Shown: positions 222 to 56,411 of the stretch, one piece after another
How the letters are laid out: each line of letters starts with the position of its first letter
Numbering within the stretch: the stretch's first letter is position 1
Assembly (NCBI GenBank): GCA_965217775.1
Contig: CBDCJH010000002.1
Coordinates: 4,640,001 to 4,704,000, forward strand
Direction of reading: 5' to 3'
From: Acidobacteriota bacterium
Lineage (GTDB): Bacteria; Acidobacteriota; UBA6911; RPQK01; JAJDTT01
Length of the DNA: 64,000 nt
The notes under the pieces: generated by a model
Database searches by the model: none
What the model was told of the DNA's origin: nothing
Seen by the model: only the letters and a program-made list of their open reading frames with translations
Translations under genes and position numbers: made by a program

Positions 222-372
222 GCCGGACAGTCGCGGATTCTGCCGGGAATTCCCCCACTGGCTTCGGTCCCGCATAGTCCCGGCAGAAAAGGGAGGCGTG
301 TGGGAGCGGGGGGTTGCAACTCTCGATTCGGGGACGGGGATGAGGAGGGGGGGAGGGACAGGAAAGTCCCCT

Positions 373-560
373 GTACCCTTTAGGGGACTTCACCCACGGT
401 GGGTGAAGAGGGCCATCCGGCCGGGAGCGACCCTAAAGTCCCCGCGCCTGAGAGCACCTGGAGGGGATTCGTGCCCCGGCCGGTAGCCGCGATGGAGAAC
501 CGGTGGAAAGTCAGCGTCCTAGAACAGCCAGTACAGGAACCGATCCGAATCGCGGCGGCC
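373..560 (+). ncRNA. Predicted bridge RNA of IS110 #1
   Basis: Hairpin 388-408. AAAGTCCCC (435-443) equals the left target; GGAGGGGA (460-467) is the reverse complement of core + right target; GTACAGG (531-537) is the reverse complement of the right donor. Confidence 0.65.
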
Positions 561-591
561 CAACATCCATTTAAGCACTCGGAGGGTCGGG

Positions 592-1839
592 ATGAAACAA
601 GATCAATGGTTTGTGGGGGTCGATTGGGCCTCCCGGTCGCACCAAGTCTGCGTGCTGGACGCGCAAGGCACTTGTCAGGGACAGCGCAGCTTCCCGCATA
701 GCGGTTCGGGCCTCGCCCAGATGGCCGACTGGATTCTCGAGCAGACGGGAACGAGTGCGGAGGCCGTCTCGGTGGCGATTGAAGTGATCAACGGTCCCGT
801 AGTGGAGTTCCTGATGGGTCGGCGTTTTGTCGTCTATACCATCAATCCGACACAGTTGGATCGGTTCCGCGACCGCTTCTCGCCGGCCGGAGCGAAGGAT
901 GACCGCCGCGATGCCCGGGTGCTGGCCGACGCCCTGAGAACCGACGGCAATCGCTTGCGACGGCTGGGTCCCGTCGACTCTGAGGTGATCGAGCTGCGCG
1001 AGTACTCACGACTGGCCGACCAGTTGATCCGCGAGCGGACCCGGCTGGTCAACCGTCTCCACGATCAACTCTGGCGCTACTATCCGCAGTTCCGGGACCT
1101 CAGCAAGAATCTCGCCGAGCCTTGGGTGATGGAAGTGTGGAAGCTGGCCCCGACGCCGGAGGATGCCCGGAAGCTGCGCCCGGTCCGCGTCGCCAAAGTG
1201 TTGAAACAACATCGGATCCGCCGAATCGACGCTCCCGAGGTCCTGCGTCTCTTGCGGGTGCCCTCCTTCCCCCTGGCCGCCGGCACCGTCCAGGCCGCCA
1301 AGGTTCACATCGCCAGCTTGGCGGAGCTCCTCGCTCTGGTCCAGCGCCAACTCCGTGACCTCTCTCGTGAGAGTGCGCGTCTGATCCGGGTTTTGGAGAA
1401 GCGGTTAGAGTCGGCGGCGGGGCCCCAGGGCCCGAGGCAGGACGTGGCGATCCTTGCCTCCCTGCCCGGGGTCGGCACCAGGGTTCTCGCCACACTACTC
1501 TCGGAAGCCTACGATGCGGTGCAACGAAGAGACTATGCCGCCTTGCGTTGTCTGTGCGGGGTCGCCCCCGTGACCCGGCGCTCCGGCAAACACACCCGCG
1601 TGGTGCGCCGCCAGGCGGTTCACCCTCGTCTGCGCGAGGCGGCCTATCATTGGGCCCGGGTATCCGCACAACACGACGCCACCAGCCGAGCCAAATACAA
1701 GGCCCTCAGGGAGCGCGGCCACGGCCATGCGCGGGCCCTGCGGTCCGTGGCTGACCGTCTGCTGGGGGTGGCCTGCACCATGTTGCGAAACCAGACGATG
1801 TTCGATGAGAATCATGCGAGACAGCGCCGTGCCGCTTGA
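592..1839 (+). CDS. IS110 family recombinase/transposase
   Basis: GVDWA, AIE and KDDRRD RuvC-like DEDD motifs; LPGVG; VTRRSG serine motif. Confidence 0.95.
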   Translation: MKQDQWFVGVDWASRSHQVCVLDAQGTCQGQRSFPHSGSGLAQMADWILEQTGTSAEAVSVAIEVINGPVVEFLMGRRFVVYTINPTQLDRFRDRFSPAGAKDDRRDARVLADALRTDGNRLRRLGPVDSEVIELREYSRLADQLIRERTRLVNRLHDQLWRYYPQFRDLSKNLAEPWVMEVWKLAPTPEDARKLRPVRVAKVLKQHRIRRIDAPEVLRLLRVPSFPLAAGTVQAAKVHIASLAELLALVQRQLRDLSRESARLIRVLEKRLESAAGPQGPRQDVAILASLPGVGTRVLATLLSEAYDAVQRRDYAALRCLCGVAPVTRRSGKHTRVVRRQAVHPRLREAAYHWARVSAQHDATSRAKYKALRERGHGHARALRSVADRLLGVACTMLRNQTMFDENHARQRRAA

Positions 1840-1957
1840 TGTAGATCCGGCCCGAGGTTCGCTCCAGGCTCCGCCGTGCGCGACCGCGCCTGGGGCTCGA
1901 GTGCGAGCCCGCCTTGGCGAGATCGGTCCGGATCCGGTTCCGTCCTGGGATCTAGCC

Positions 1958-4422
1958 CTGCCCTTTACCCACATATTGCACAGGGCACATTAGCCTGGGT
2001 CTGGTTTCATTCATGTTTCTTCTCGTAAAGCGAAGCCCAGACACATGCCGTAGAGCGTGACGTAGCCCTGCCACATCAGTTGATGCCCGGGTGGGGGGTC
2101 GTGTTTACGAGCCAGATATCCCCCCAGGCGGGCCAGCACGAGCACGGCCGCCCCCAGGTCTTCCGGCGGTGGGTATCGTCACGACGCGGCAAACGCCCCC
2201 AGGACCCGGATTTCCAGATCGGAAAACAGCAACTGCGCCGGCAGGTCCGGGTCCTCTCGCCCCAACAGCGTCATCAGCATGATCCGCCAAGCGATGACGG
2301 CGTGCATGGCGATGGCCCGTTTCAGACGTTCGGCGGTTTGGTGCTGGAGCTGTTGCACCCGGCATCCGGTCTTGAGCACCCGGAAATAATCCTCCACCCG
2401 CCAGCGCAGCGCATACCATCTCAGCAGTTGCTGCGCCGTCTCGACATCGGTCACGGGCATGGTGGTGAGCAGGAACCATTCCAGGCGCTTCCCGTCCGCC
2501 GGCGGCGCGACCTCCCGCGCGTGCACCACCGACAGTCTCAGCGAAGGGATGCCGGTTGGGTTCCCGCGCGGCGCCGGAATCGTCAGGGTCTCGTAGCGCA
2601 GTTCCATCCGTGCCACCCGCGCCAGCCGCCGCGGGCGGGCCGCCTGCTTGCTGGCCTTGATCCGCGCACTCTGACGCTTCACCTCCAGCAGCATCCGGGC
2701 CCGCACCGGCGCCGATCGCAGGCGCCCGAACAGCTTCCGCTTCTGCTCCGGGTCCGGATCCCCGCTTTTCCCGGCCGCCTTCGCCCGGGTCTTCCGCTTC
2801 AGCACCCGATCCTGCTTCGCACGCACCAGCAACTCCACCTCCGGAGACGCTCGTTGCTCGGCGAACAGTGCGAAAAAATCCGCCGCCCGGTCCACCACGC
2901 TGACCACCCGCACCCCCTCGAGGGACCGCGACACCTCGGCGCAGTCCCGAAGTCCCTCGATCCAGCGATACGTCTTCTTCTTTTTCCGCGTGGCCGCCGG
3001 TCCCGGCTTCGGCGCGTCCAGCTTCGCCCGCAACACCCCCAGCGGCAGCCCCGTCTCACTCACCACCAGCGTCGCGTGCAGATGCAGTCCCCGCGCCGTC
3101 GCTCCCGTCTGGTTGCGCCCGATCACCCCCAGTCCCTCACACCGGCCGTGCCGCGTGAAGTTCAGATCGCTCCCGTCCTGGATACACAGCACCGTCCGCT
3201 GCCCCTGCATCCGCTGTCGGGTCCGCTCCCGGTGCGGGGCCAGGATGTTGGACACCGTCACCGCCGAGGCTTCCGGCTGGTCGATCAGCCGGTAGTATCC
3301 CTTGACCGCCGCCGGATCGCCCCGCGCCACTCCCGTGAACGCCCGCCCCGGTTCCTGCGCCTGACGGTGCGCACTCTCCACCAGTCGCCGACTCAAGCGC
3401 CGGTCTCCCAGCGGCGCCCCGCCCAACTCCTGCTGCGCCCAGCCCTCTCCCTCCAGTCCCTCGCCCTCCGACATCGGTTCCACTCCCCGCCTCGGCGCCG
3501 GTCCCACCCCCAACCGCCGCCGCCAATCCCGGCACAACTCATACCCATAGATCGCCTTGCTCGTCTCCGCCGCCCGGTGCGCCCGATCTTGCCGGCCTCG
3601 ACCTTGCGTCTTCCCCAGAACCCTCCAGTTCGAGGCGCGCAAACTGGCCCCATCGTGGCGGGCCGTCTCCACGAAGGTCTCCACCAGCCAGGGCCGGTAG
3701 CCGTAGCGCGCCTGGAACTCCGGACCCAGCCGCCGCAACGCCTCCCCCAGCACCCGGGAGGCCAGATTACGACATCTCACCGACGGACGGATCAGAAACC
3801 GGCTCAGCCCCACCACCCGGTGCAGGTGCGCCCGGCGCTGTTCCTTATCCCATCCGATCCAGCGGTCCCGGTCCCGCAACCGCAACGCCGCCGCCCCGAA
3901 GCCCAAGCCCCCCAGCCAGCCGTGCGCCGAGTTCACCAGATAGCGTAACTGAGCACCCACCAACGGCCCCGCGCCCCGCGGATGCTCTCGCGCCATCAAC
4001 TCGTTCCAGAGCGCTCGCTGCGGACTCGTCTCCACCAGAATCAATTCCAGCTCCCGCACGCCGTCCACCGTCGCGGGCACTCCCACCGCCTCCGGCACCG
4101 CTCGGCCCAGTCCTCGGGGCCCGCAATGTTTCACCCGCCGTCGCGGCGTCGGCAGACGAATCCGTCCGCGCGCCTCCAACTCCCGCAGCGCCTTCAGGCA
4201 GCCGCTCCGTTGCGCCCGCCCTCGGGCATCGTGAAATCCAAACTCCGAGCAGACCCGGTCTGCCAGCGCCGTCCGGTGGGCGAACTTCTCCCGCCTCATC
4301 ACGGCGTGTAAACGATCCAACTCTCGGCTCAAGGTGCGCTTGATCTGGCTCTGAACTACCATGTCGTGGAGACTACGACAGGCAATCTTGTTTGTCCAGC
4401 ACTATTTGTGGGTATAGGGCAG
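1958..4422 (-). mobile_element. IS4-family insertion sequence
   Basis: TIRs CTGCCCTTTACCCACATAT (1958-1976) / ATTTGTGGGTATAGGGCAG (4404-4422), 17/19 match; TSD ATCTAGCC at 1950-1957 and 4423-4430. Confidence 0.9.
2011..4362 (-). pseudogene. IS4 (Tn5/IS50-like) transposase with N-terminal DUF4338 (DruA-like) domain; in-frame TGA at 2179-2181
   Basis: IQDGS, VDR and Y..RW.VE.YF..LK motifs. After the TGA the same frame continues ...LARLGGYLARKHDPPPGHQLMWQG (dimerisation domain) to a stop at 2011. N-terminus has RFLIRP..NLAS..LVETFV..ASNW of DUF4338. Confidence 0.85.
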
Positions 4423-4538
4423 ATCTAGCCGCCGCCGTCGAGCCGGTGGGAAAGTGGGAAACATTCCCATGTTTTCCACTTTCCCACCGGCTCCTGGCTC
4501 CTCCCGTGCCCCCTTGATAAAAGGTGGGAAGTCCCCTC

Positions 4539-5663
4539 CTATCCGGACTCGAGGATTCGCCGAACCGTCTCGGCCAGGCGGCGGGCTATCAGTTCATTGC
4601 CCCGATCCCCCGGGTGAACATTGTCCAGGAAGACATCCTCCTTCACCTCATCGAAAACCGTAGTCAGGTCGAGGAACGAAAGACCTTCCTCGCGCAGGCT
4701 CCCCACCCGGTCTCGAATCTCTTGCGAGGCGTGTTGGAAGTAGGCTTGACTCTGCCGGTTCAGACGAGCCGATTCCCGGGGACTCAACTCTTTTCCGGTG
4801 GTGTAGAGCGAGGGCTGAAGGACGAAGAGATAGGGAGAGTCCCTCATGCGGAGGGCCACCGTGGCCAGTTGAACATTCTTCGCCAGGCGTGCCGCCACCA
4901 GGGGAGGGTCCACGGGTCGATCTCCGATCTCCTGCACGTCGACGAGGCCCCCGCGGCCCAAGAGGCGAAGTGCGGAATCGTTCAGCGACCAGAACAAGTG
5001 ATCGTGGTAGGTCCTGAACCACATCACGTCTCGTCCCATCTGTCCCCAGTGCACGTCGTTGAGGCCGGAGAAAGAGATCACCAGGTCCGGCTGCCATTCG
5101 GAGAGACGGTTTTCGATGAGGATTCTCTCGTGGGTTGAAGCCCAGGCGGGATTGGCCAGGGTAAAGACCCGATACCGCGGCTCGGCCACACCGCGGTTGA
5201 GTTCCGCCTCGAGATATCCCCCGATGGTCCGATCTTGGGAAGGGGCTCCCGACCCGAAGGCCACGGAGCCTCCCGTGATAAAGATGCGCGCTACACCGGC
5301 TTGCTTCCGGGCAGGCAGCTCCCGGGTGGACCGAAACTGGCGGCGATTGATGGTGGCGTTGCCACTGGTTCCCGGTTGGGGACCGGTCCCCACGAAGGGA
5401 GTGGGGACGTTGGGGACGGCCCAGGTGAAGCCCTCCATTGCCTCCAGGGCAGCCTCCGGTTCATGGTAGGCTCGGGCCAGGTCCGGCCATTCCCCCGGGG
5501 GTATGAAACCACCCATGAGCTCCCTCCGCCAAGTCTCGCTCGCGGATCCCCGCAGGGACCGGATCTCCAGATAGGATCCGATCAGGATTCCTGTTCCCAG
5601 CAGGGCTGTTGTCAAGAGGGTCGCGGCCAGCGCCAGCACCAGTTTTATTCGGAGATCGCTCAC
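4539..5663 (-). CDS. SGNH/GDSL hydrolase family protein, membrane-anchored
   Basis: N-terminal TM, ITGGSVAFG block I, SGLND block III, DNVHP block V. Confidence 0.85.
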   Translation of the reverse strand: MSDLRIKLVLALAATLLTTALLGTGILIGSYLEIRSLRGSASETWRRELMGGFIPPGEWPDLARAYHEPEAALEAMEGFTWAVPNVPTPFVGTGPQPGTSGNATINRRQFRSTRELPARKQAGVARIFITGGSVAFGSGAPSQDRTIGGYLEAELNRGVAEPRYRVFTLANPAWASTHERILIENRLSEWQPDLVISFSGLNDVHWGQMGRDVMWFRTYHDHLFWSLNDSALRLLGRGGLVDVQEIGDRPVDPPLVAARLAKNVQLATVALRMRDSPYLFVLQPSLYTTGKELSPRESARLNRQSQAYFQHASQEIRDRVGSLREEGLSFLDLTTVFDEVKEDVFLDNVHPGDRGNELIARRLAETVRRILESG

Positions 5664-5824: not shown

Positions 5825-6078
5825 TCTTGGCGGCAGGTCCGGCGGTCTTCCCCGTTGCTCGGGCGGGTCGGCTTCCGCATTACCCGTTTCGAGATCTGCT
5901 CAGCATTCACATGTTGCGGTCTGCGGACTCGCTGAGTCGCCCAAGTCGATCCTTTGACATCGGAGTGCCTCAATCCATATCGTTGCCTCCACGAACCGCT
6001 CCGACTGCTTCCGGCTGGAGCGACAGTTGCCGGGTGGGATTCGCACCCACTGAGAAACCGCGCCTTTGCACGGCGCTC
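5825..6078 (-). mobile_element. 5' fragment (domain I) of a group II intron, a different lineage from the full copies
   Basis: Minus strand begins GAGCGCCGTGCAAAGGCG..GGGTGCGAATCCCACCCGGCAACTGTCGCTCCAGCCGGAAGCA, a recognisable group II intron 5' end (GUGCG appears as GAGCG). No RT ORF follows; 3' limit approximate. Confidence 0.7.
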
Positions 6079-6524: not shown

Positions 6525-6775
6525 CCCTCCGATGGAAGCAAGACCGCTCACACAGTAGAACGGGGTCCGGTTTCCCCTTCCGTTGACTATCCTGCCTCAT
6601 CCGGCCCCTGGCGCTTTCGCGCCGATTCCCTCCTCCAGGGCCGATTTCGTCTGGTCCTGAGAAAAAAGAAGGGGACTATATAGCGAGAGAGCGAATATCG
6701 GCCCTATGCGGGCCTGTTGGCGTTTGGGCCGGTGTGTTGGGAGGAGAGCGAGTCGCTTAGGGCAAGCCAACCTAG

Positions 6776-6933
6776 CAGCCCGTGGCAAAAGTCATCACGG
6801 CATTCGACCGTCCCTGCATCCCGGCGGACGGCGTTGCTATCGGCTCACATACTCCCGGTATGCACCCGAATCGCGCCTTGTCCGGCGGGCGCAGGAACGG
6901 TCTCGGTGCTCGCGGGACTTTCACCACGGACTG
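6776..6933 (+). mobile_element. MITE family A, copy 1 (158 bp)
   Basis: TIR CAGCCCGTGGCAAAAGTC / GACTTTCACCACGGACTG; TSD CTAG; four near-identical copies in the window. Confidence 0.9.
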
Positions 6934-6937
6934 CTAG

Positions 6938-7065
6938 CCCGCATTTCTCACCAGGTCGCTACGCGTATGATGAAAAATAATCTGTTTTTGAGCATTTACG
7001 CGGAATTTTCCAAGGTTTCTCCGGGACAGACTGCGCTGGGCGCGCGCGCTGATGAGAAATCCGGG
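6938..7065. mobile_element. MITE family B (128 bp)
   Basis: TIR CCCGCATTTCTCA / TGAGAAATCCGGG, flanked by CTAG at 6934-6937 and 7066-7069. Confidence 0.75.
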
Positions 7066-7321
7066 CTAGCTGTTGCGGGGACTGAGGATCAGGATTGCCT
7101 TCGACAACGAACATGCAGTTTCCATTATTCGTTTTCAGCCGCTCGTGACACGGGGCCTTGACGTCATCGCACGATGGATCCTGGATTATGCGGGGCCTGC
7201 GGCTGCCGATCGGTCGCTTTCCGAGATCGAAAGGACGATCACGAGCCGGGCACAAACCCCACACAGGGGATCGATCCGCAATGAAATGGCGACCGGGTTG
7301 CAAGCAATCGGGCTTATATAC

Positions 7322-8659
7322 CTAAGTGCCCTTGGCATACAGTTCTGGCACCACGCTTTCCCCAACGAGATACGTTCCGGTGCCCAGGGCAAGAACCCCA
7401 GCCCTGAGAATGTTCAGGGCGGCATTGTGGTCCCTGTCCATTCCAAGTCCGCAGGCCCTGCACCGGAAGGTTTCGCTCCGCCCTGGATCGTGGCGGGCGC
7501 CGCACCGGTGGCAGTCCTGCGATGTATATCAGCCCGTGGCAAAAGTCGTCACGGCATTCGACCGTCCCTGCATCCCGGCGGACTGCGTTGCGATTCGGGC
7601 ACATACTCCCGGTATGCACCCGAATCGCGCCTTGTCCGGCGGGCGCAGGAACGGTCTCGGTGCTCGCGCGACTTTCACCACGGACTGATATGCGGGATTC
7701 ACTTCTACGAACTTCCGACCGGCCCATTCTGCCTTGTACTGGATTTGATTCCGCAGAAGCCCCCAGGATTGCGTCAGTATTTCTCGATTCAGCCCCTTCT
7801 TCTTCGAGCCCTTCGTTACCATCCCTTGGATGTTCAGCTTCTCCACAGCGATCAGACCGTGCTCACGAATGATCCTGGTGGAGAGACGATGGCAGGCATT
7901 ACGGTTTCGGACCGATTCCCGGTGACGGAGCCGAGATAGCTGTACGATCCGCTTCCGTCTGGTCTTGGAAATCTTCTTGCACCTGGAGACCTTTCTCTGC
8001 TGCTTTCGGATCCCCGCCCAGTCCCGTCTATTCCGTTCGATCCTCTCACCCGTGGACAGCACCGCTCGCTGGCGGACTCCCAGGTCGATCCCCACCGAAG
8101 ACTCGCATTTCGGTAGCGGCGGCTTCTCCACCTCGTACGTCAGGTCCACATACACCCGGTTCGGCTTGCGGACAATCCGCAACGCCTTCAACGGGCATCC
8201 GTCCGGCAACGGCCGGGACGGAAATATCCGGATCGTCGGGAAGCCCTTGGGCCGGATGGCGTAGCCCCGAGCGCGCTTCTTCACCCGGGTCGCCTTGGGG
8301 TCGACGACGTCGATGGTCTCCATCCTCGCAATGGGCCGGAATCGAGGATACCCCGGCTTCTCCCCCGCCTTGCAGCGACGGAAGAACGCCTTGAAGGCCC
8401 GGTCCAACCACATCAACATCCCACGCTCCGCCTTGACCGCCACCGACCCGAGCCCCTCCGGATCGTCCTTCCTCTGGGAGGTCAACCCCTTCATCTGATC
8501 GTACAGGGTCACGCCGCGTTGCTCGGATTCCCAGGCCGTCCTGCGTTCCTCCAGTGCAGCGTTGTACAGCCGATTCAGGATGGACCTCACCCCGTCCAAC
8601 CGCCGGATTCCACCCTTGGACAGCTTGGCTCTGCACTGGATAGTTGCGTGGACTTTCAT
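7322..8659 (-). pseudogene. tnpB: RNA-guided endonuclease TnpB, interrupted by MITE A
   Basis: YNAALEER, GYPRF, GIDLG (RuvC-I), AVEKL (RuvC-II). Removing the MITE and one TSD restores PAYTSQDCHRCG...CRAC...DRDHNAALNI (Zn finger + RuvC-III), 391 aa. Confidence 0.93.
7530..7687 (+). mobile_element. MITE family A, copy 2 (inside tnpB)
   Basis: Same TIRs; TSD ATAT at 7526-7529 and 7688-7691. Confidence 0.92.
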
Positions 8660-8873
8660 GGTAGGAATCGTAACCCATCAGCCTGAATTCTCGGCACTTA
8701 CGTATATAATCCCCCAAGCAATCCCCGGCGGTCGAAAAGCCGTCGTCGCCTTTGCCGTCGACGACGACGCGGGCGAGTTTCTCAGTCATGCCGGGGCCGA
8801 TTGGGTGGCGCAGATGCCTGGAAGGCAAGATGTCGAGGGAGAGAGGGGGGCGGGGCATCTTTTGGGGATTAAG

Positions 8874-10804
8874 CCGAAGTTCCAGACATAGAGACGAGAT
8901 AACTCCTTGATTCTAAAGGGACAACTCACGAAGCGGACTAGTTGTCCACTGGGAACACCTTGACCAACTCCAGCGCCCGTCGCTGCAGCGTCGTCGGTTC
9001 CGTCAATCGTTGCAGCGTCGGACCGTCCGGGTCCGAAGCGGTTCGGCACTGGTGACGGGCACGCGTCGCCATCTCCGCCATCAGTGTCTTGAAGCTGTGA
9101 AGCGGCAGTCCGTCCTCGGTTTCCCGCTTCGTCTTCTTTCGTTTGGCCGAGGCCGACGGCTCGGCTTTCAGCACCGGGTCCCGTCGAGCGCGGTGCGCGT
9201 CCAGGTCCTCGTCATCGAACAACAACGGGGCCAGGGCTCGCCGCAGATGCCACTGGACATAGTAGGCCAGCAGGCACAGGAACAGGTGCGACCGCACCCG
9301 CATCTCTGCCCGGTGACGGATGGGACGGATCTGCAAGTCCACCGTCTTGAGTGAGCGGAAGGCCCGCTCCACGTTCGTCAGGTTCTTGTAGCTGCGCACC
9401 ACGTCGGGCGTCGCCAACCGGTCTTCGGGTTCGCTGGTGCGCAGGATGTAGAATCCGTCCAGTTGCGCCTCGCGGGCGATGGCTTCGGTGCGCCGAGCGT
9501 ATTCGAAGCGCCCGTCTTCGATCACCAGCTCGAAGTGCTTGGCCACCTTGTACCGGTTCTTGATCCGACCCACCTTCAGCGCGATCTGGGTCGCCAGCAA
9601 GGGCGTCTTGGTCCGTCGCGCCACCTCCCGGGCGATCCGGGCCAACTTCTTCTCCGTCTCCGCCACCAGGTCCTGGCGTTTGTTCCGCCGATACTCGGCC
9701 AGCATCGGGTTGTAACAGACGACGAGCCGTTCGCCCGGATAGGCCTCGGTCCGGATCTCCGCCAAGTGACGCTCGTCAAAGAGCGAGGGTTGAACCGCTT
9801 GGGCGTCCACCAGTTGGCGAATGGCCTCATGCCGCAGGGCCGAGATCCAGCCCAGCCCCGGATACCGCTTCAGATGCTTGATCTGAGTCTCGGTCAGCAG
9901 CCCCCGGTCCCCCACCAGCACCACCCGCTTCAAGCCGAAGCGCTGGCGTAACTTCTCGACTTGATCCGGCACCGTGACCGGATCCCCCGTGTTGCCGGGA
10001 TAGGCCTGGACCGCCACCGGACAACCCGCCGCATCGGCCATCACCCCGTAGACCACGATGGGACGGCCCCGCTTGCCGTCCCGGCTGTGGCCGTACTGCA
10101 TCAGGGAGCAGGTGTGGCCTTCATAGTAGCTGCTGCTGACGTCGTAGAGCACGTGATCCCCTTCAGCCAGATGCCGCCGGGCCAGCTTCTTCTCGATCCG
10201 ATTCTGACGTTCGAGCAACCAGTCCATGGCCCCGTACAGGTCGTCCTCGTCGGCGTCCTCCAGGGAGAGCTCGGAAGCCAGGGTGGTGGTGTGCCAGAGC
10301 CGGGTGGTGGCGAGCTTGGAGGCGGGATGCAACAAGCGCTGAATGATCAGGGCCAGCACCAGGTTGCGCTGGCGCGAGGGCTTGGGGTCGATCAGAGTCG
10401 GGAGCTTCAGGCGGCGGATGGCTTTGAGAACCATCTCGACATGGCCATGAGGAAGGGAGCGTTCGATGACGAAGAGCTCATCGGGGTGGACGAGAGGGAC
10501 GTTCTTGAGGACGAGACGGAGTCGCTGGATCTTGTCCGGGGGCCACTTGGAGAGGTTGGCGATGGTGCGTTTACGGACGCGCTTGCCTTCGCGCCAGCCT
10601 TCGCGCAGGAGGATGGCGGGGCGGGAGTTTCGGTTGGGGACGGTGTCGATGTACATGGCAACTAGTATATAGAATATACCTTTTATATTCAACAGGAAGA
10701 GTCATCACATACATGGGAACACAAATGAGCTGATTCAGAGCCGTATCCGTAATAAAATCAACGACTTAGCTCGATTTTAGGGGGATATTTTCCCGGAACT
10801 TCCG
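8874..10804 (-). mobile_element. IS1634-family insertion sequence
   Basis: Ends CCGAAGTTCC / GGAACTTCCG; TSD ATTAAG at 8868-8873 and 10805-10810. Confidence 0.85.
8938..10656 (-). CDS. IS1634 family DDE transposase
   Basis: MYIDTVPNRNSRPAILLRE N-terminus; YDVSSSYYEG, VGDRG, YKNLTNVERAFRSLK. Confidence 0.93.
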   Translation of the reverse strand: MYIDTVPNRNSRPAILLREGWREGKRVRKRTIANLSKWPPDKIQRLRLVLKNVPLVHPDELFVIERSLPHGHVEMVLKAIRRLKLPTLIDPKPSRQRNLVLALIIQRLLHPASKLATTRLWHTTTLASELSLEDADEDDLYGAMDWLLERQNRIEKKLARRHLAEGDHVLYDVSSSYYEGHTCSLMQYGHSRDGKRGRPIVVYGVMADAAGCPVAVQAYPGNTGDPVTVPDQVEKLRQRFGLKRVVLVGDRGLLTETQIKHLKRYPGLGWISALRHEAIRQLVDAQAVQPSLFDERHLAEIRTEAYPGERLVVCYNPMLAEYRRNKRQDLVAETEKKLARIAREVARRTKTPLLATQIALKVGRIKNRYKVAKHFELVIEDGRFEYARRTEAIAREAQLDGFYILRTSEPEDRLATPDVVRSYKNLTNVERAFRSLKTVDLQIRPIRHRAEMRVRSHLFLCLLAYYVQWHLRRALAPLLFDDEDLDAHRARRDPVLKAEPSASAKRKKTKRETEDGLPLHSFKTLMAEMATRARHQCRTASDPDGPTLQRLTEPTTLQRRALELVKVFPVDN

Positions 10805-10864
10805 ATTAAGAGTCGGCGGCAAGAAAACCGCCGCTCTCGCTCCCGCTCCTGCTAGGATTTCCCC

Positions 10865-11910: not shown

Positions 11911-11911
11911 C

Positions 11912-12766: not shown

Positions 12767-12783
12767 TCGAGTGGAGAGTATAG

Positions 12784-12942
12784 CAGCCCGTGGCGAAAGT
12801 CCCGCGAGCACCGAGACCGTTCCTGCGCCCGCCGGACAAGGCGCTTCGGAGGGAGCATACCGGGAGTATGTGAGCCGATAGCAACGCAGTCCGCCGGGAT
12901 GCAGGGACGGTCGAATGCCGTGACGACTTTTGCCACGGGCTG
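12784..12942 (-). mobile_element. MITE family A, copy 3 (inverted)
   Basis: Reverse complement of copy 1; TSD ATAG. Confidence 0.9.
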
Positions 12943-13623
12943 ATAGCTGGTGGGCCGTCCCTTCGTGGGGAGGTCGATGCGGGGAATGCGGGAGTCGGGG
13001 CAAGAGGGGGAGTGAGGAGGTTCCCGGACGACCGGTTATTGCTATAGATAGACAAATTTGGCGCTGTTTTTACCATCCATAGTCGAAATCCCGATTCCGC
13101 ATGGATTGAGCCAAGATATTTCACGGTCCAGCCACCTGCTCGCCCATGCTTTTGTGCCCCATTGTGAGCTTGGGAGTTCGGCGGTTATGAAACCGCCGCT
13201 CCTCGACCGAATATTCCGTTCGTCGTGTTCGACGCAGGTTTGGCGGTCGCCGCAAGTGAATCAGGCGCCACGGTCCACGGAGCGCGTCCTGGAAGCTGAG
13301 AGAAAAGGTAGCGGCGCCTGGAAGAGTGAAGAAAGGAGCGTAGATTACGCGTAGCGCGCACCACAACCGAAAAGGTCAATACTCATTCCGGTCGCCGGTA
13401 GACATCCCGGCGATGGGCGACGCGGACGACCAGCACGACGAGTACACCTTCGCGCACTTCGTAAATCACGCGGTAATCGCCCACGCGAAGCCGGCGCAGG
13501 CCCCGCATATCGCCCTTGAGCGCATCGCCGAGGAATGGATTCTCTGCATGAATAGCGGTATGGCGTCGGCGGAAAACGGGGGTGGAGGAGAAGAATGGGC
13601 AATTGGAAATCGCCCTTCCGGCG

Positions 13624-18898: not shown

Positions 18899-19030
18899 GA
18901 GCCTGCGCCGCAGAAATTGATCTACTGCGAAAGCGGTAGAATAGGTTCATATTTCCCCGATTTCTCGGCGAATCGAACGACTATGCACCTCAAAATCGAG
19001 AAAATCCGGCCTCGATTCCCCGCTTTCTCG
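18899..19030. mobile_element. MITE family C, truncated copy
   Basis: CTAG + GAGCCTGCGCCGCAGAAATTGATC, identical to the left end at 42130; right TIR not seen. Confidence 0.55.
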
Positions 19031-22166: not shown

Positions 22167-22179
22167 TGTCTGTTTAAAT

Positions 22180-22340: not shown

Positions 22341-22346
22341 GGAAAG

Positions 22347-34892: not shown

Positions 34893-34935
34893 AACTCAAT
34901 TCCCAAACGCATTCCAGATTCCAACTGCGAGATTT

Positions 34936-35963: not shown

Positions 35964-35989
35964 GGTGGCGGGGAGGTCGGCGGCAAGAA

Positions 35990-37906: not shown

Positions 37907-37920
37907 AGCCGCCGCTCCCC

Positions 37921-38376
37921 CTACCAGGAGGCCACGTCGGCGCTGTCGGATTCGCCTCCTTCCACGCCGTCGGCGCCCCAGCTCCAGAGGTCGTAGTCGC
38001 CGTACTGTCCCGGGGCGCGGTACTGGTACTCACGGCCCCAGGGGTCGTTGGGCAGGGTCCGCTTGTCCAGGTAGGGACCGCTCCAGTTGTGGAGCCCGGC
38101 GTTTTCCAACAAGCTGGTGAGCCCCTCCGCCGTGTTGGGGTAGCGGCCCACGTCGAAACGAAAAAGACCCAGGGCTCCTTCGAACTGGTCGATCTGGAGC
38201 TTGGCGATCTCGCTCTTTCCCCGGCCCAGGCGTTCCATCACCTTGGGACCCACCACCGTGGCCAGAAGTCCCAGGATCACCAGCACCACGATGAGCTCGA
38301 TCAGGGAAAACCCTCGATCGCGTTTCCTTTCCTCCGTTTCCACGGCCTTGGCGGCCTTGTCGACTGTCCTGCTCAC
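37921..38376 (-). CDS. gspG: Major pseudopilin GspG
   Basis: GFSLIEL, GRYPNTAEGL, WSGPYL, DPWG, GADG. Confidence 0.96.
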   Translation of the reverse strand: MSRTVDKAAKAVETEERKRDRGFSLIELIVVLVILGLLATVVGPKVMERLGRGKSEIAKLQIDQFEGALGLFRFDVGRYPNTAEGLTSLLENAGLHNWSGPYLDKRTLPNDPWGREYQYRAPGQYGDYDLWSWGADGVEGGESDSADVASW

Positions 38377-38399
38377 GTCTACCTCCCTTTGATAAGTGC

Positions 38400-43650: not shown

Positions 43651-43789
43651 ATCCGTCCTTGCGGAAGAAGGAAAGGAGCGGCGGTTTCCAACCGCCGAAC
43701 TCCCGTGGAGCATGGCGGAACGGGCGACTGGAACTCGCCCTTCCTTGTTTCTATGAAGAGTGAAGAAAGACCGGTTGACTTCGGCCTAG

Positions 43790-43947
43790 CAGCCCGTGGC
43801 AAAAGTCATCACGGCATTCGACCGTCCCTGCATCCCGGCGGACGGCGTTGCGATTCGGGCACATACTCCCGGTATGCACCCGAATCGCGCCTTGTCCGGC
43901 GGGCGCAGGAACGGTCTCGGTGCTCGCGGGACTTTCACCACGGACTG
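43790..43947 (+). mobile_element. MITE family A, copy 4
   Basis: Same TIRs; TSD CTAG overlapping the M23 gene stop codon. Confidence 0.92.
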
Positions 43948-44829
43948 CTAGTAACGGAAGAAGCGGACCGGGTTCAGGGGACGGCTGCCCAACTGAATTT
44001 CGTAGTGGAGATGAACTCCGGTGGTGCGGCCCGTGGAACCGACGTATCCGACGATGTCGCCGCGCTGGACCTTCTGCCCCACCTTGACGTTGACCTCGGC
44101 CAGATGCCCATAGCGGGTCACGATGCCGAAACGGTGGCGGAGGTTGACCAACCGGCCGTAGCCGTGGTGCCAACCGGCGTGGGTCACCTCCCCGTCACTG
44201 GTGGCCACGACCTTGGCGCCGCGTGGGGCCGAAATGTCGACTCCGGGATGGAATTCCCTGTTTCCGGTGAAGGGGTCGCTCCGGTAGCCGTATCCGCCCG
44301 ACGGATACCCCCGCACCGGCATCACGGTGGGCAGGGCGGACTGAAGGATGCTGCGAGTCGTGTAGTAGTCCTGAAGCCGTCGCAACTCACTCTCCAAAGT
44401 CATCCGCCGGCCGTCCAGGGTCCGGAAACGCTTCAGGAGGTCTCTGTGATCCAGGGTCAGGAGTGGGCGAGCCACTCGCGCGGGGCCGCCGGCGCCGCCG
44501 AAGCCGTCGTCATCGTTCTCGGAGAGGAACTTGAGGCGGGTGGCGGTCACCTCCAGCGAGGAGATCTTGTCGGTCAACTTGCCGGAGACGGCCCTCAGAC
44601 CCGCATTTTCCTGCCGCATGCGGGCGACCTCCGTCTCGAGCCGGACCACGTGGACGGTCCGTTCCGCCATCCACCAGTAATGGAGCATGGAGAACAGGAA
44701 GGAGAGAAACAGGACACCGCCGAGCAGACCGATAACGGTCGTCAGGACCACGGGCAGGGAATACTTCCTGGCGCCCTCCCTCCCGGAACGAGCGATGATC
44801 AGGGTGTAGGTGTCACCAGTTTTGAGCAC
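43948..44829 (-). CDS. M23 family metallopeptidase
   Basis: TM + coiled coil, HPGVD, YGHL, TGVHLHYE. Confidence 0.93.
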   Translation of the reverse strand: MLKTGDTYTLIIARSGREGARKYSLPVVLTTVIGLLGGVLFLSFLFSMLHYWWMAERTVHVVRLETEVARMRQENAGLRAVSGKLTDKISSLEVTATRLKFLSENDDDGFGGAGGPARVARPLLTLDHRDLLKRFRTLDGRRMTLESELRRLQDYYTTRSILQSALPTVMPVRGYPSGGYGYRSDPFTGNREFHPGVDISAPRGAKVVATSDGEVTHAGWHHGYGRLVNLRHRFGIVTRYGHLAEVNVKVGQKVQRGDIVGYVGSTGRTTGVHLHYEIQLGSRPLNPVRFFRY

Positions 44830-44956
44830 TGTCGCGTACTTTGAGAGATGGGAACGAGTCCGACCGCGGTTTCCCGCCCAAGCGCCCCATCAGCCATAAG
44901 GCGCCGGTCAGGACATCGAGGGTCGGATTCTAGTTTGGGGTGTTCCGGGAAGTCAA

Positions 44957-45126
44957 GGAGCGGCGACTTTCTTGTCGCCGAGCAGGGGGGCAGGGGGGAC
45001 GGAGTCCCCACTTCACACTTTCCCCCCTCTACACGTTCCGGCCACCGAATCGCTTAGCGGCATGGAAGAGCAGGCGGCAAGAAAGCCGCCTGTCCCAGTG
45101 GGCGACAAGAAAGTCGCCCCTCCGGG
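44957..45126. repeat. Composite REP cluster (empty homologue of the intron copy 2 site)
   Basis: Aligns by eye to 53193-53318 + 55236-55277; three GGCG(A/G)CAAGAAAG(T/C)CGCC hairpins. Confidence 0.85.
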
Positions 45127-52691: not shown

Positions 52692-53144
52692 ATGAACGCC
52701 TCGTTCGACACTCTCGCGGCCGCCCGCGAGCTGGAATCCGGTGGCTTCGACGACAAGCAAGCTGCAGTCTTGCTGAAGGTCATGCGCATGAGTGGAGAGT
52801 CCACCGTCACGAAATCCGATCTCGCCCTCGTGAAATCGGATCTCTCCCGCATGGATGAGTCGTTGCGGCGAGAGATCGTCGCAACCAGAGTTGAACTCCG
52901 GTCCTCGATTGCCGAGTTGCGCACGGAAATTGCATCCACTGCGGGCGAGGTGCGTGCAGAAATTGCATCTATTACGGTCGAGTTGCGTGCAGAAATTGCA
53001 TCTACTACGGTCGAGTTGCGCGGAGAAATCGCCACGGCCAAGGCGGAGCTCCGAGCGGACATGAATGCCATGGCCAACAAGATGCTCCTCTCTCAGTTGG
53101 CCGTTGCCGGACTCCTCTTTGCCGCGATCAAGACCTTCACGTGA
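52692..53144 (+). CDS. DUF1640/CCDC90-like coiled-coil protein
   Basis: FDTLAAARELESGGF, VTKSDL, ELRAEIA 11-mer repeats, C-terminal TM. Confidence 0.85.
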   Translation: MNASFDTLAAARELESGGFDDKQAAVLLKVMRMSGESTVTKSDLALVKSDLSRMDESLRREIVATRVELRSSIAELRTEIASTAGEVRAEIASITVELRAEIASTTVELRGEIATAKAELRADMNAMANKMLLSQLAVAGLLFAAIKTFT

Positions 53145-53167: not shown

Positions 53168-53318
53168 GGGAGCGGCGGTTTCCAGCCGCCGAAGGAGCGG
53201 CGGTTTCTAGCCGCCGATCAGGGGGGCAGGGGGGACGGAGTCCCCACTGTACACTTTCCCCCTCAATACTTTCCGGTCACCGAATCGCGTAGCAAGATAG
53301 AAGAGCAGGCGACAAGAA
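53168..53318. repeat. Composite REP cluster, left of intron copy 2 (continues at 55236-55295)
   Basis: GGAGCGGCGGTTTC(C/T)AGCCGCCGA twice, GGGGACGGAGTCCCC, and a half-hairpin GGCGACAAGAA. Confidence 0.85.
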
Positions 53319-55235
53319 GTCACGGTAGGAACGGCAGTTTCCTGCCGCCCCCCGCACAGATCCGGACGTGCCCGTTAAGGCATCCGGCTCCTACCTTGGG
53401 TGTGGACGGCCAGCGGAACCGCTGCCCCGGCCACGGGTGACGGATCTTCACGGATGGCCAGAGCAATTCCGTCATCCGTCGCAACCGTCCCCAGCTGAAG
53501 CGGTCGCGTTGGGACCGGCGGCGCAAGGCTCGCAGCCACCGCCGTTGCAGCAGATAGCAGAAACCTCGCAGCCAGCGCGTACTCCCCGGAACCGCAAAAT
53601 AGTTCAGCCAGCCGTTCAGGACCCGGCTCAACCATTTCCCGACCTCCCAGTGATCCGCGTGCCGTTGTCTCCACAGCCTCTCCCCCAACCGTTGCAGGGT
53701 CCGGTTCATCCGTTTCGCGCTTGGCTTCCGCCCCAGCCGGAAGCGTCCCTTCCGGGTCTTCGCACAGTAGTGCGTGAACCCCAGAAAGTCGAACGTCTCC
53801 GGTTTCCGCTCCCCGCGTCGTCGCCGATCCGCTGCCGCAAATCGTCCGAACTCCACCAGTCGCGTCTTTTCCGGGTGCAGTTCCAGCCCGAACTCGGCGC
53901 ACCGTTCCCCCAGGTCTCGGAGAAACCGTTTCGCGTCCGCCCGTCTCTGGAATCCGGCCACGAAGTCGTCCGCATATCGCACCAGGATCGCTTCGCCTTT
54001 CGGGACTCGTGGGCGCCACGTCCGATGGAACCATTGGTCCAGCACGTAGTGCAGGTACACGTTGGCCATGACCGGCGAGACGTTGGCGCCCTGAGGCGTC
54101 CCTCTCCCCGTGTCCGACCAGGTCCCTTCTTCCATCACGCCGGCGTTCAGCCACTTGCGCAGCAGCCGCAGCACCCGCCGGTCTCCGATCCGCCGTTCCA
54201 CGAACTGCATCAGGCAGTCCCGGTCGATCGCATCAAAGAACGTCCGAATGTCCGCGTCCACGATCCAGTTGACTTTCCGCCGTTCGATCCCGTAGGCCAG
54301 TGCATCCAGCGCGTCATGCGCCTTCCGTCCGGGCCGGAACCCGTAGCTGAGCCCGAGAAACTCCGCCTCGTAAATCGGCGTCAGGAGCTCGTCCACGACT
54401 GCCTTCTGGAGGATCTTGTCCTCCAGCGCGGCCACGCCGAGCGGTCGTGTCCTTCCATCCGGCTTGGGGATGTTCACCCGCCGGACGGGAGGCGCTCGGT
54501 ACGCGCCCCGGTGCACGCGGCGATGCAGGTCCAGCAGTCGCTCTTCCAGCTTCGCCCCGTACTCCTCCCACCGGACCCCGTCGATTCCCGGCGCAGCATC
54601 CTTCCTCAGTCCGAGGTAGGCGCGGCGCAGGGCCTCCACAGTGATATGGTGCAGCAGCGCGGTCAGTCGCTCCTTGGGGTTTCTCGCGATCGCTCGCCGT
54701 ATCCGGTCCACCGCTTGGGACACGCTCCCCCGACTCTGCGTCCGGCGCGTGCTTTGGCTCACCGAATTCCCCTTGGTTCCATCCCTTCGCTCCACCGGCT
54801 CCGCCGAGGGTCGCCCCTCTTTGTTCGCCCGCTTCATCGCTACTATGGATGAATCCGATTGCTTCGTTCCGTCCATCATGAGTTTCGGGTTACTCCTTTC
54901 TCATGCGACCCCGGGGCGACCCCCCGGCGTGAAATGAAGCCCTCCCAGGTCCCGGAACAAGATTTGCGTACGTGCCTGGGTTCTTTGACACCGCGGAGCC
55001 CGGCCGTCCCTCACCTGGGCGGTCCAGCCGGTGTTGCCTTCGACCGCGACTACAGTCTCGGCACTTCCGATCATGGAGCTTTCGATGCTCAATAGCCTGC
55101 CCATACGCACCGCTACCGACGCTTCGCCGACACCCTCACGGGTGCCAACGCACGGCTCGCGGAGAAACGTGGATGGTTAGTCCTTCGTTTCGGCGGACTT
55201 CCACCGCCTATCTTGTGCCAGTTAGCCTGGCGCAC
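53319..55235 (-). mobile_element. Group II intron, copy 2
   Basis: Apparently identical to 35990-37906 (offset 17329; all ORF translations identical). Confidence 0.95.
53320..54879 (-). CDS. ltrA: Group II intron reverse transcriptase/maturase
   Basis: Identical 519-aa protein to copy 1. Confidence 0.95.
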   Translation of the reverse strand: MMDGTKQSDSSIVAMKRANKEGRPSAEPVERRDGTKGNSVSQSTRRTQSRGSVSQAVDRIRRAIARNPKERLTALLHHITVEALRRAYLGLRKDAAPGIDGVRWEEYGAKLEERLLDLHRRVHRGAYRAPPVRRVNIPKPDGRTRPLGVAALEDKILQKAVVDELLTPIYEAEFLGLSYGFRPGRKAHDALDALAYGIERRKVNWIVDADIRTFFDAIDRDCLMQFVERRIGDRRVLRLLRKWLNAGVMEEGTWSDTGRGTPQGANVSPVMANVYLHYVLDQWFHRTWRPRVPKGEAILVRYADDFVAGFQRRADAKRFLRDLGERCAEFGLELHPEKTRLVEFGRFAAADRRRRGERKPETFDFLGFTHYCAKTRKGRFRLGRKPSAKRMNRTLQRLGERLWRQRHADHWEVGKWLSRVLNGWLNYFAVPGSTRWLRGFCYLLQRRWLRALRRRSQRDRFSWGRLRRMTELLWPSVKIRHPWPGQRFRWPSTPKVGAGCLNGHVRICAGGGRKLPFLP

Positions 55236-56411
55236 AGTCGCCTCTCCCAGTGGGCGACTGGAAATCGCCCCTCCGGGCGATTGGAAATTGCCCGTCCCGC
55301 AGACTTCCCGGATCATGCGGCGATAGATCTCCACCGCTGCTTCGAGTTGCTCGATGGAGATCCACTCTCCCACCGTGTGGGCCTGGGCGATGTTGCCGGG
55401 ACCCAGGACCACCAATTCGTCGACCTGGTCCTTGATCCAGATGGAGTCGGTACCGTAGGGGACGGTCTTGGGCTTCCGTCCGCCGCCGGCCCGGGATGCC
55501 AGTTGCACCAGGTCGGCATCGGGAGGAACGTAGAAAGGACCCTTGTACGCGGTCTCCACCTCCAGGCCGTGGGCTCTGGCCCTGCCGGCGACGATCTCCA
55601 TCAGTTCCCGGCTCTGGTCGCCGGGCATGGGCCGGAAGCCGACTTGGCAGGTGCACCTGGCCGCGCTCACGTTGGGGCGGGTGCCGCCGTCCTCGAAGAC
55701 CATGTTGAAACCGTTGGTGGGCGGATCGAAGTCCGGGTTCCGGTAGCGGGGATCCTTTTTCACATCCTTGGCCAGCTCAGCCATCTCGGCCAGGAAAGGA
55801 GCGATCAGAAAATTGGCCGAGGTGCCGAGATCGGTGCTGGTGTGGGCCGCTCTGCCCCGGGCCGTGGCCATGACCAGGACTCCGCCCTTGTGGGCATAGA
55901 CCGGCCACAACTCGGTAGGCTCGGCCACTACAGCGTAGGTCGGCCGTGCTTCGTTGAAGAACCGGGACTCCCGGACCACCTGCTTGGCCCCGCCCCCGCC
56001 CACTTCCTCGTCGGCGGTGGCCATGACCAGGACCGGATGCTTCAGGTCCCCTGAGTCCACCGTCGCGGCCGCAGCCATGGTGGCCGCCAGAGGTCCCTTC
56101 ATGTCGCAGGATCCCCTTCCGGAAATCTTTCCGTCCCCGGCCACCGGGTCGTAGGGGTCCCAGTCCTCTTCCTGTCCCGGCACCGTGTCGGTGTGGGAGA
56201 AGAAGGCCAACCCCCCCGTTCCCGATCCCTTCCGGCCGACGATGCTGACCTTGGTCTCCCCGTTTTCGTCCACGTAGTCGAGGCGCTCGGTTTCGAAGCC
56301 GTGCTCTCGAAACCGCTCCTCCACCAGGTCGGAGATCAGAGCGTTGCTCCAGCGGCTGACGGATTTGATGGCGACGAGATCCCGGGTCAGGGAAACAGGG
56401 TCGAGTTGCAT
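55113..56411 (-). CDS. argE: M20 family metallopeptidase / acetylornithine deacetylase
   Basis: SHTDTVP, GRGSCDMKG, DEE, VAEPT, GPG..AHT; no stop before the intron, so the ORF runs into it. Confidence 0.85.
   Translation of the reverse strand: MQLDPVSLTRDLVAIKSVSRWSNALISDLVEERFREHGFETERLDYVDENGETKVSIVGRKGSGTGGLAFFSHTDTVPGQEEDWDPYDPVAGDGKISGRGSCDMKGPLAATMAAAATVDSGDLKHPVLVMATADEEVGGGGAKQVVRESRFFNEARPTYAVVAEPTELWPVYAHKGGVLVMATARGRAAHTSTDLGTSANFLIAPFLAEMAELAKDVKKDPRYRNPDFDPPTNGFNMVFEDGGTRPNVSAARCTCQVGFRPMPGDQSRELMEIVAGRARAHGLEVETAYKGPFYVPPDADLVQLASRAGGGRKPKTVPYGTDSIWIKDQVDELVVLGPGNIAQAHTVGEWISIEQLEAAVEIYRRMIREVCGTGNFQSPGGAISSRPLGEATVRQANWHKIGGGSPPKRRTNHPRFSASRALAPVRVSAKRR

Follow-up and report, generated by a model that had tools for sequence, protein, structure and literature searches.

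REP hairpins as a probable shared homing site of two IS110 elements and a group II intron in an uncultured acidobacterial genus

Why should unrelated mobile elements settle in one family of short palindromes? The question is raised by a 64,000-nucleotide stretch of an uncultured Acidobacteriota genome (C2:4640001-4704000; the window, meaning the whole stretch), which holds an array of repetitive extragenic palindromes (REPs) beside a gene resembling those for REP-associated tyrosine transposases (RAYTs), two insertion-sequence (IS) elements of the IS110 family (IS110#1 and IS110#2) and a group II intron that is present twice. A sequence-only reading had suggested that these three independent RNA-guided elements converge on REPs, and that they divide the REP subtypes among themselves. 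The convergence is borne out, far above what the 0.19% of the genome covered by REPs would predict; the division is not. The REP family is very probably the homing site of three unrelated elements, each brought there by base pairing of its own RNA. The genome (G000) comprises 6,434,117 bp in two contigs, with a G+C content of about 63%, and the relatives found in public records are metagenome-assembled genomes of uncultured Acidobacteriota.

Insertions in the REP family

The REPs are hairpins of the form GGCG[AG]-loop-[CT]CGCC, with several hundred perfect examples in the genome. Among these the most frequent loops are CAAGAAAG (107), CTGGAAA (100), TTGGAAA (83) and CTAGAAA (27). The flanks are conserved as well, giving the consensus TCGGCGRC-loop-GYCGCCGCTCC. 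A catalogue built from an nhmmer profile together with the exact pattern contains 475 loci, or 11,936 bp, of which 31 lie within the window; these are thus short GC-rich palindromes at well over 100 copies, and the individual sites that were inspected sit between genes. The exact pattern with an AAGAAAG loop (K-loop) occurs 109 times in the genome and its reversed control 0 times. Within the genus, seven of the eight other species carry the K-loop pattern at 15-202 copies each, whereas none of 22 genomes outside the genus does; the reversed control is absent from all.

The pairing of a RAYT with a REP array, noted in the sequence-only reading, is present. The array (21497-22166) consists of 6.4 copies of a 104-bp unit with 95% matches (TRF score 1226), includes 14 catalogued REPs and is built from two inverted hairpins per unit, GGCGGC-TGGAAA-CCGCC and GGGCGA-TTTCCAG-TCGCCC. 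Were it not for the insertion of IS110#2, only about 25 bp would separate the array from the RAYT-like open reading frame (ORF). This gene (25597-26268, forward strand, start codon uncertain) encodes a Y1 (HUH) transposase with the motifs HVH and Y..ENP, as read from the DNA; it scores 29.9 bits against Pfam Y1_Tnp (cut-off 23) and 78.3 bits against NCBIfam REP_Tyr_transpos, just below the cut-off of 80. A degenerate REP (25639-25665) precedes the gene, and a single array unit (26267-26345, 92-96% match to the array units) follows directly after its stop codon, so that it is bracketed by REPs in opposite orientation (25639-25665 and 26267-26293), the arrangement that marks RAYT-type genes. Orthologues elsewhere in the genus share 73-79% identity, and each adjoins its own REP variant. 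A second paralogue in G000 (C2:5635317-5635884, 74% nucleotide identity to the window gene) is bracketed by other hairpins, GGGGAC...GTCCCC and GGGGGT...ACCCCC. K-loop REPs have no adjacent RAYT anywhere in this genome. By analogy with RAYTs elsewhere, it is plausible that the RAYT generates and spreads the REP targets.

Insertions in these repeats could be no commoner than REP coverage predicts. Copy ends of eleven element families were therefore located genome-wide, and for each end it was determined how far away the closest catalogued REP lies. This measure under-counts the intron and IS110#1, because an insertion splits the REP or the host is a GGGAC hairpin outside the GGCGRC-based catalogue, and the junctions of these two elements were accordingly read directly. 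Taken together, 22 of 23 junctions of the three elements fall in palindromic repeats: 14/15 intron 5' junctions, 5/5 left ends of IS110#2 (all directly on a REP by catalogue distance) and 3/3 left ends of IS110#1. Of the 365 left ends in the eight control families, only 3 have a REP at a distance of 30 bp or less: IS110 type C 0/6, IS110 type D 0/4, TnpB 0/13, IS4-like 0/4, ISKra4-like 0/5 and three families of miniature inverted-repeat transposable elements (MITEs), MITE-A 2/238, MITE-B 1/37 and MITE-C 0/58. The difference corresponds to a Fisher p of 1e-31, which is indicative only, since the copies are not all independent. Chance coverage thus fails as an account. Other RNA-guided elements of the same genome are not found on REPs, among them TnpB (0/13 ends) and IS110 type D (0/4).

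Guides and targets of the three elements

The guides of the two IS110 elements were assigned by the pairing rules for bridge RNAs of Durrant et al. 2024 (PMC11208160), whose available text has each loop's 5' side carrying the top strand of the left target plus the core, and the 3' side complementing the core plus the right target or donor. Both elements have the features that define the family: a recombinase with an N-terminal DEDD domain (PF01548) and a C-terminal PF02371 domain, a predicted first loop matching the target and a predicted second loop matching the element's own ends. In both left ends the four guides, namely the left and right target guides (LTG, RTG) and the left and right donor guides (LDG, RDG), stand in bridge-RNA order and on the described sides of the loops. 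These left ends are thus predicted to encode bridge RNAs.

IS110#2 (22167-25572, forward strand) begins directly after ...GGAAACCGCCGCT, at the end of the array. Its recombinase gene (22347-23294) scores 79.9 bits for PF01548, 67.6 for PF02371 and 205.5 for NF033542 (cut-off 140), and the 180-nt left end (22167-22346) contains the predicted bridge RNA, with the LTG ACCGCCGC (22231-22238), the RTG GGAG (22259-22262), the LDG AUGGAUAC (22296-22303) and the RDG GACAAG (22324-22329). The left flank reads ...ACCGCCG-CT, the REP continues CT-CC, and the element starts with TGTCTG and ends with ...CATGGATA; the LDG equals this right end plus the core, and the RDG is the reverse complement of CT+TGTC. 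All four guides therefore fit a CT core, and the LTG matches the REP arm, as had been proposed. The left end folds better than shuffled sequence (z = -5.8), with the LDG and RDG on opposite sides of one internal loop in the minimum-free-energy structure. An ISKra4-like element (23685-25529) with the target duplication GGATGGAAA is nested in the right end.

The genome contains four full copies of IS110#2 and one fragment, two in REPs with a TGGAAA loop (W-loop) and three in REPs with a K-loop, and these correspond to two sub-lineages, with the LTG ACCGCCGC on W-loop (2/2) and GUCGCCGCU on K-loop REPs (3/3). Guides and targets also vary together across the genus. Of 22 copies with a readable junction in four species, 18 have an LTG 8-mer identical to the flank and the other 4 match at 7/8, whereas pairing guides with the flanks of other variants gives 0/282 perfect matches. 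Of three LTG variants, ACCGCCGC adjoins ...AACCGCCGCT and GUCGCCGC adjoins ...AAAG[T/C]CGCCGCT. Three copies in the species G006 carry the LTG ACCGACGC and all sit at ...GTCACCGACGCT (...ACCGACGCT) in a different repeat, and one G006 copy lies outside any REP, at a site with a perfect match to its guide. Copies in G001 and G003 (LTGs CACGCCGCU and GACGCCGCU), with unresolved left junctions, were left out of these counts; the REP variant GAAASACGCCGCTCC is present in 111 and 28 copies in these two species versus 1 and 3 in G006 and G004. The expectation that guides track REP changes between species is thus upheld for IS110#2.

IS110#1 begins at 372, directly after the REP-like hairpin GGGAC-AGGAAA-GTCCCC (355-371), and the nine bases AAAGTCCCC (363-371) are identical to its LTG, which fits the proposed guidance to this palindrome. 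The 5' part (372-1957, forward strand) comprises the left end with the predicted bridge RNA (372-591) and the recombinase gene (592-1839), which scores 126.1 bits for DEDD_Tnp_IS110 (PF01548), 58.7 for Transposase_20 (PF02371) and 181.5 for NF033542 (cut-off 140). The guides are the LTG AAAGUCCCC (435-443), the RTG GGAGGGG (460-466), the LDG GGAAAGUC (505-512) and the RDG GUACAGG (531-537). The 3' part (4422-4539, forward strand) continues the element as in an uninterrupted copy (C2:2467230-2467347) and ends in ...GGGAAGT at 4532, followed by the core CC and the right target CCTCC (4533-4539). With the left flank AAAGTC[C/G]CC, the right flank CC-CCTCC and an element that begins TGTACC, the guides fit a CC core. 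CCCCTCC, the reverse complement of the RTG, is common to the right flanks of all 10 copies in which a right end was found; the LDG matches the right end at 7-8 of 10 bases. All three copies in G000 have their left ends directly after the 3' arm of a hairpin, and two of these hairpins are GGCGAC-AAGAAAG-TCGCC, the REP type that also hosts the intron. Across the genus, six LTG variants (AAAGUCCCC, ACAGUCCCC, AAUGUCCCU, AAAGCCGCA, AAAGUCGCA and AAAACCGCA) are distributed over 12 copies from four species, each variant adjoining a REP arm that it matches at 6-8 of 8 bases, with the RTG and the right flank constant.

The third element is a mobile group II intron of 1917 bp with recognizable ribozyme domains, a 5' end of GUGCG and a reverse transcriptase (RT)/maturase ORF in domain IV. 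It matches RF02005 over the full model (166.7 bits, the domain I-IV region), domains V-VI match RF00029 below the cut-off (37.5 against 40 bits), and the ORF scores 355.4 bits against TIGR04416, the group II RT/maturase family. Domain-profile matching detects no endonuclease (En) domain in the RT, and its best matches among solved structures are IIC RTs (7uim, 1e-47; 6ar1, 1.6e-46). Copy 1 (35990-37906, reverse strand; RT ORF 35991-37550) splits a REP into the halves 37919-37907 (GGGAGCGGCGGCT) and 35989-35979 (TTCTTGCCGCC). Copy 2 (53319-55235, reverse strand) lies next to half a REP on the 5' exon side (55248-55236), followed by two REPs at 55249-55297. On its other side a composite unit (53169-53318) is composed of two REPs, a spacer and a half REP ending at the intron. 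An unoccupied unit of the same type (44956-45123) has a reverse REP, a 90-bp spacer with GGGGACGGAGTCCCC and two forward K-loop REPs, and its homologue at C2:6088415-6088587 again holds an intron.

Both window introns interrupt the hairpin GGCGRC-TTTCTTG-YCGCC within the loop. Exon-binding site 1 (EBS1), AGUCGC (37722-37717 in copy 1, 55051-55046 in copy 2), lies in a loop that is unpaired in the Rfam alignment and, if G-U pairs are counted, is the complement of GCGRCU at exon positions -6 to -1; EBS2, GCUCC (37750-37746), lies in another unpaired stretch upstream and complements positions -12 to -8, GGAGC. The combined target GGAGCGGCGRCU is the REP consensus on the other strand, with entry after the first loop base. 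The sequence-only reading had described the hairpin read by EBS1 in terms of its loop. EBS1 does match the REP hairpin, but since its complement is GCGRCU, what it reads is the 5' arm plus the first loop base. Of the 15 5' junctions in the genome, 13 end in GGCG[AG][CT]T; a different palindrome supplies the arm (GGGGCACCC) at another, and the last is outside any REP. The 3' junctions comprise 11 beginning TTC[TC]TG[CT]CGCC, two beginning T(T)CCAG[CT]CGCC, one in the other palindrome and one non-REP. Even the non-REP site (C2:3931636) matches both intron-binding sites (IBS1 and IBS2). Unoccupied perfect sites (GGAGNGGCGRCTT) number 103, and 94 of them lie in catalogued REPs.

The intron family is found in all 9 genomes of the genus, including many copies without an ORF, and 46 copies from six species were compared. 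EBS1 and IBS1 match at 6/6 positions in 43 copies and at 5/6 in 3, with seven EBS1 variants; when lineages are crossed, no more than 119 of 1254 pairings are complete (6/6). AGUCGC adjoins GCGRCU and AGUCCC adjoins GGGACU (GGGGAC-type hairpins), AAUCGC adjoins GCGAUU and AACCCC adjoins GGGGUU, and GGGUGC and GGUCGC adjoin GCACCC and GCGACC in another palindrome. GGAUGC adjoins GCAUCU at a non-palindromic site, three times in G004. EBS2 (variants GCUCC, CCUAC and CAUGC) pairs fully with IBS2 (5/5) in 25 copies, at 4/5 positions in 20 more and at 3/5 in one, versus 0/570 perfect pairings across lineages. For the intron, too, the guides track the REPs between species. The G002 intron, at 97% identity and with an unchanged EBS1, is found in hairpins of the K-loop, W-loop and GGGGAC types, so that loop type is not the feature recognized.

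Insertion is also oriented with respect to replication. By cumulative GC skew, contig C2 has its origin near 4.98 Mb and its terminus near 1.68 Mb, and the intron sense strand is the leading-strand sequence, corresponding to the lagging-strand template, in 15/16 loci versus 51/102 free perfect sites (p = 5e-4). An intron-free form of the copy 1 site was recovered when contigs of four public runs were mapped to window positions 34500-39500. Run X1 supplies a 650-nt contig that aligns to the unique flank 37919-38530, from which it differs at 14 positions; next come ten letters, which make the hairpin whole, and then the opposite flank, with no intron in between. Since both flanks are joined through an intact hairpin, the intron-free form exists, most likely as an allele in a close relative. 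The RNA-library run X9 has a similar intron-less joint at this site; its contigs also cover the intron, and contigs cannot demonstrate transcription or splicing.

Derivatives of about 643 nt that retain domains I-III and V-VI and have lost the ORF are few in G000 (C2:4405417-4406059, 4406623-4407265 and 3223516-3224157) and number about ten each in G005 and G006, with EBS variants of their own; they presumably rely on an RT supplied in trans. In the sister species G006 (C1:6114886-6117080) one such intron and a copy of IS110#2 occupy neighbouring hairpins of a single REP cluster, 38 bp apart.

Mechanism, alternatives and setting

These observations suggest the following scheme. About 475 RAYT-associated REPs, abundant and mostly intergenic, would have become the homing site of the three elements for these two reasons. 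Each IS110 element would produce a bridge RNA from its left end, as predicted from its sequence and the IS621 rules. The left target guide would carry the last loop bases and the REP 3' arm, the right target guide would complement the constant tail, (CT)CC or CCCCTCC, and the second loop would match the element's own two ends. The DEDD/Ser recombinase would then exchange strands at a two-base core, CT for IS110#2 and CC for IS110#1. The endonuclease-less intron would use EBS2 and EBS1 to reverse-splice into the opposite strand of the REP after the first loop base, probably entering the single-stranded lagging-strand template at replication forks as RmInt1 does, a route suggested by its orientation. 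Through mutations in the guides, sub-lineages would arise that are adapted to different REP arms and, now and then, to other repeats.

Several considerations weigh against this scheme. Copies share ancestry, both within the genome and across sister species, and the counts therefore overstate the number of independent events. The bridge-RNA structures rest on minimum-free-energy folds and analogy; the left end of IS110#1 folds no better than shuffled sequence (z = -1.1), and no Rfam family matches the left ends, the scan of IS110#2 returning sub-threshold microRNA-like noise. The core dinucleotides and exact ends of the IS110 elements are themselves predictions from sequence. A number of occupied sites carry one or two guide mismatches, and the shorter side of the X1 empty-site joint is only 28 bases. 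Finally, in five different palindromes the insertion point of the intron is the arm/loop boundary, a regularity unexplained by pairing alone, so that hairpin structure could also matter.

This last point leads to the strongest alternative, namely that hairpin structure is the main determinant, recognized by protein or ribozyme as it is by class IIC introns and Y1 transposases, and that base pairing is secondary. The five different palindromes entered at the 5' arm/loop boundary speak for it, as do an RT nearest to those of class IIC among solved structures and an orientation that fits entry into single-stranded DNA. However, IBS1 is the hairpin arm itself, so that EBS1 pairing and the hairpin are mutually exclusive. 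Moreover, non-palindromic sites with matching IBS sequences are occupied, both at C2:3931636 and by the three G004 copies, in which both EBSs have changed, and IS110#2 is found at a non-REP site with a perfect guide match. We regard this alternative as unlikely. The intron also departs from the features of class IIC: it has a covarying EBS2 and lies inside the hairpin loop, and a REP hairpin stands upstream at only 6/15 sites.

Less likely still is the proposal that every RNA-guided element has a REP subtype to itself and that all of the targets come from the RAYT. It draws on the window copies, IS110#2 on a TGGAAA-loop REP and IS110#1 on a GGGAC-type hairpin, on the AAGAAAG-loop REPs that make up 11/15 of the intron's 3' exons in G000 and on the split between the LTGs ACCGCCGC and GUCGCCGCU over W-loop and K-loop REPs. 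But both loop types are used within the IS110#2 family, IS110#1 has two of its three copies on the REP type of the intron, and the intron itself also enters W-loop REPs (2/15 in G000) as well as the three hairpin types in G002. Furthermore, the guides read arm and tail rather than loop, and the K-loop REPs lack an adjacent RAYT in G000. Since the three families overlap on the same REPs, a partition of subtypes is unsupported. The elements differ instead in their points of entry: the intron enters the loop, IS110#2 follows ...CGCCG-CT and IS110#1 follows ...GTCGCC. A single hairpin type in G000, GGCGAC with a K-loop, is used by all three (IS110#1 in 2/3 copies). What is supported is a finer tuning, in which sub-lineages of one element are adapted to variants of the REP arm.

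That REP clusters are merely recombination-prone or neutral places in which any mobile DNA survives, without targeting, is hardly credible: the window is very rich in mobile DNA, as is the genome with its 736 kb of long repeats, and an IS1634 element abuts a REP, yet eight other families, including two IS110 lineages, TnpB, IS4-like, ISKra4-like and three MITE families, place only 3/365 left ends near one, and each of the three REP-associated elements joins at the same nucleotide every time.

Homing of each element by its own base-pairing RNA is thus the reading that we retain. A broader version of it is no more than tentative: across the genus, the REP/RAYT population may be a shared and evolving resource with which several unrelated guide-RNA elements (the two IS110 lineages, the intron and its ORF-less derivatives) co-diversify, single-base guide changes dividing each of them into sub-lineages that track particular variants of the REP arm, and the arm/loop position may reflect a requirement for the single-stranded lagging-strand template, the same substrate as that of the RAYT.

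The setting is one of dense mobile DNA, which makes up much of the window when it is compared with its own genome by megablast. Genome-wide, repeats of at least 500 bp at no less than 85% identity fill 291 intervals with a total of 736 kb, or about 11% of the genome, an unusually high load for a free-standing bacterial chromosome. The IS1634-family element (about 8870-10804, reverse strand; inverted repeat CCGAAGTTCC, NF033559 321.7 bits) was said to adjoin a REP at 10815, and this is indeed seen: the right inverted repeat runs to about 10804, followed by the target duplication ATTAAG and a REP hairpin (10811-10836, forward strand). A truncated second copy, the only other one, lacks a REP at the end that it retains; with one complete copy, no inference about targeting is drawn.

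Nested in the right end of IS110#1 is an IS4-family element (1958-4421, reverse strand; NF033590 254.8 bits) with about 9 bp duplicated at its ends. It occurs in four genome copies and encodes a 727-aa transposase, the N-terminal part of which matches the Druantia DruA domain (PF14236, 113.7 bits). A TnpB-only element of the IS200/IS605 type (7305-8725; NF040570 160 bits) is present in 11-13 copies genome-wide, and the window copy contains a MITE-A (7530-7687) whose flanks overlap by 4 bp. MITE-A, 166 bp with terminal inverted repeats, exceeds 200 copies (238 left ends) and recurs in the window at 6771-6936, 12769-12959 and 43785-43950; MITE families are found there at 6934-7047 and 18895-19030 as well. 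A third IS110 lineage, type C (C2:1656568-1658154 and three more), occupies one internal position of MITE-A in 4/4 copies and appears to target MITE-A rather than REPs. The window also contains an isolated group II intron fragment (5909-6052, reverse strand; RF02003, 73 bits) that differs from the REP-associated intron and has no ORF, no domain V-VI match and no REP at its ends. Tandem repeats include a 411-bp duplication (19430-20225, 1.9 copies) and arrays of a 33-bp unit at 52913-53029 (3.5 copies) and 63347-63487 (4.3 copies).

Relation to known systems

Insertion sequences, chiefly those of the IS110 family, have been described as using REPs as targets (Tobes and Pareja 2006, PMC1525189). 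The accessible text of that study places ISPa11 in REPs in 6/6 copies, ISPpu9 in 7/7 and ISPpu10 in 7/7, and the portions available of two later papers describe REPs as the natural targets of IS621 in the context of bridge RNAs (PMC11208160) and ISPpu9 in REPs (PMC12288879). Insertion of IS110 elements into REPs is therefore already known. Like IS621 of Escherichia coli, ISPpu9 and ISPpu10 of Pseudomonas putida and ISPa11 of P. aeruginosa, the elements described here have a DEDD and Ser recombinase and a fixed position in the REP, and by analogy their non-coding left ends would carry target and donor guides around a two-base core. They differ in their host, an uncultured Acidobacteriota genus, and in that two lineages share one REP family at different positions and with different cores (CT for one, CC for the other). 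A number of natural guide variants are found here together with REP arms that match them, and the right end of IS110#2 is longer than the left, yet the guides are in the left end.

For the intron, the closest parallel in target is the group II intron of P. putida KT2440, which according to the available text of PMC1525189 is REP-associated in 2/9 copies. In the present case 13/15 junctions lie in one REP family, and guide complementarity accompanies them. The closest parallel in mechanism is RmInt1 of Sinorhizobium meliloti, an endonuclease-less intron that homes into ISRm2011-2 (PMC8914252, PMC6698660, PMC1802570, as far as their available text goes); both have an RT without En, home into a multi-copy target by EBS/IBS pairing and prefer the lagging-strand template. 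Unlike RmInt1, the intron described here enters the loop of a REP hairpin of about 25 nt instead of an insertion sequence, has many ORF-less copies of about 643 nt and has diversified its EBS1 and EBS2 onto several palindromes within a genus. Its association with DNA hairpins, small ribozyme, small En-less RT and best structural matches recall class IIC introns. Introns of that class, such as B.h.I1, home to terminator or attC hairpins, lack EBS2 and insert just downstream of the stem-loop. The intron studied here differs in having a covarying EBS2-IBS2 pair and in interrupting the hairpin. No paper was found on a group II intron lineage that homes into REP loops, though subscription journals and the supplementary files of PMC1525189 and PMC11208160 may hold cases.

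The RAYT and its repeats resemble REP/REPIN-RAYT systems described elsewhere (Nunvar 2010; Bertels and Rainey 2011) in their high-copy GC-rich palindromes, in the single Y1 gene flanked by inverted REPs and in the species-specific REP variants that adjoin orthologous RAYTs. The tandem array of 104-bp doublets next to the RAYT sets them apart and, as far as we have seen, the arrangement is new for the phylum.

Usually discussed for host function or RAYT mobility, REPs here also determine where other mobile DNA settles. Within a single genus, the locus and its relatives provide a compact natural set in which bridge RNAs and intron EBS loops are seen retargeting among the variants of one repeat family, and from which natural guide/target pairs could be drawn for testing the mismatch tolerance of bridge recombinases and endonuclease-less introns. 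None of this calls for a new mechanism. Each element follows a targeting mechanism that is already known, and the system as a whole is a clear new example.

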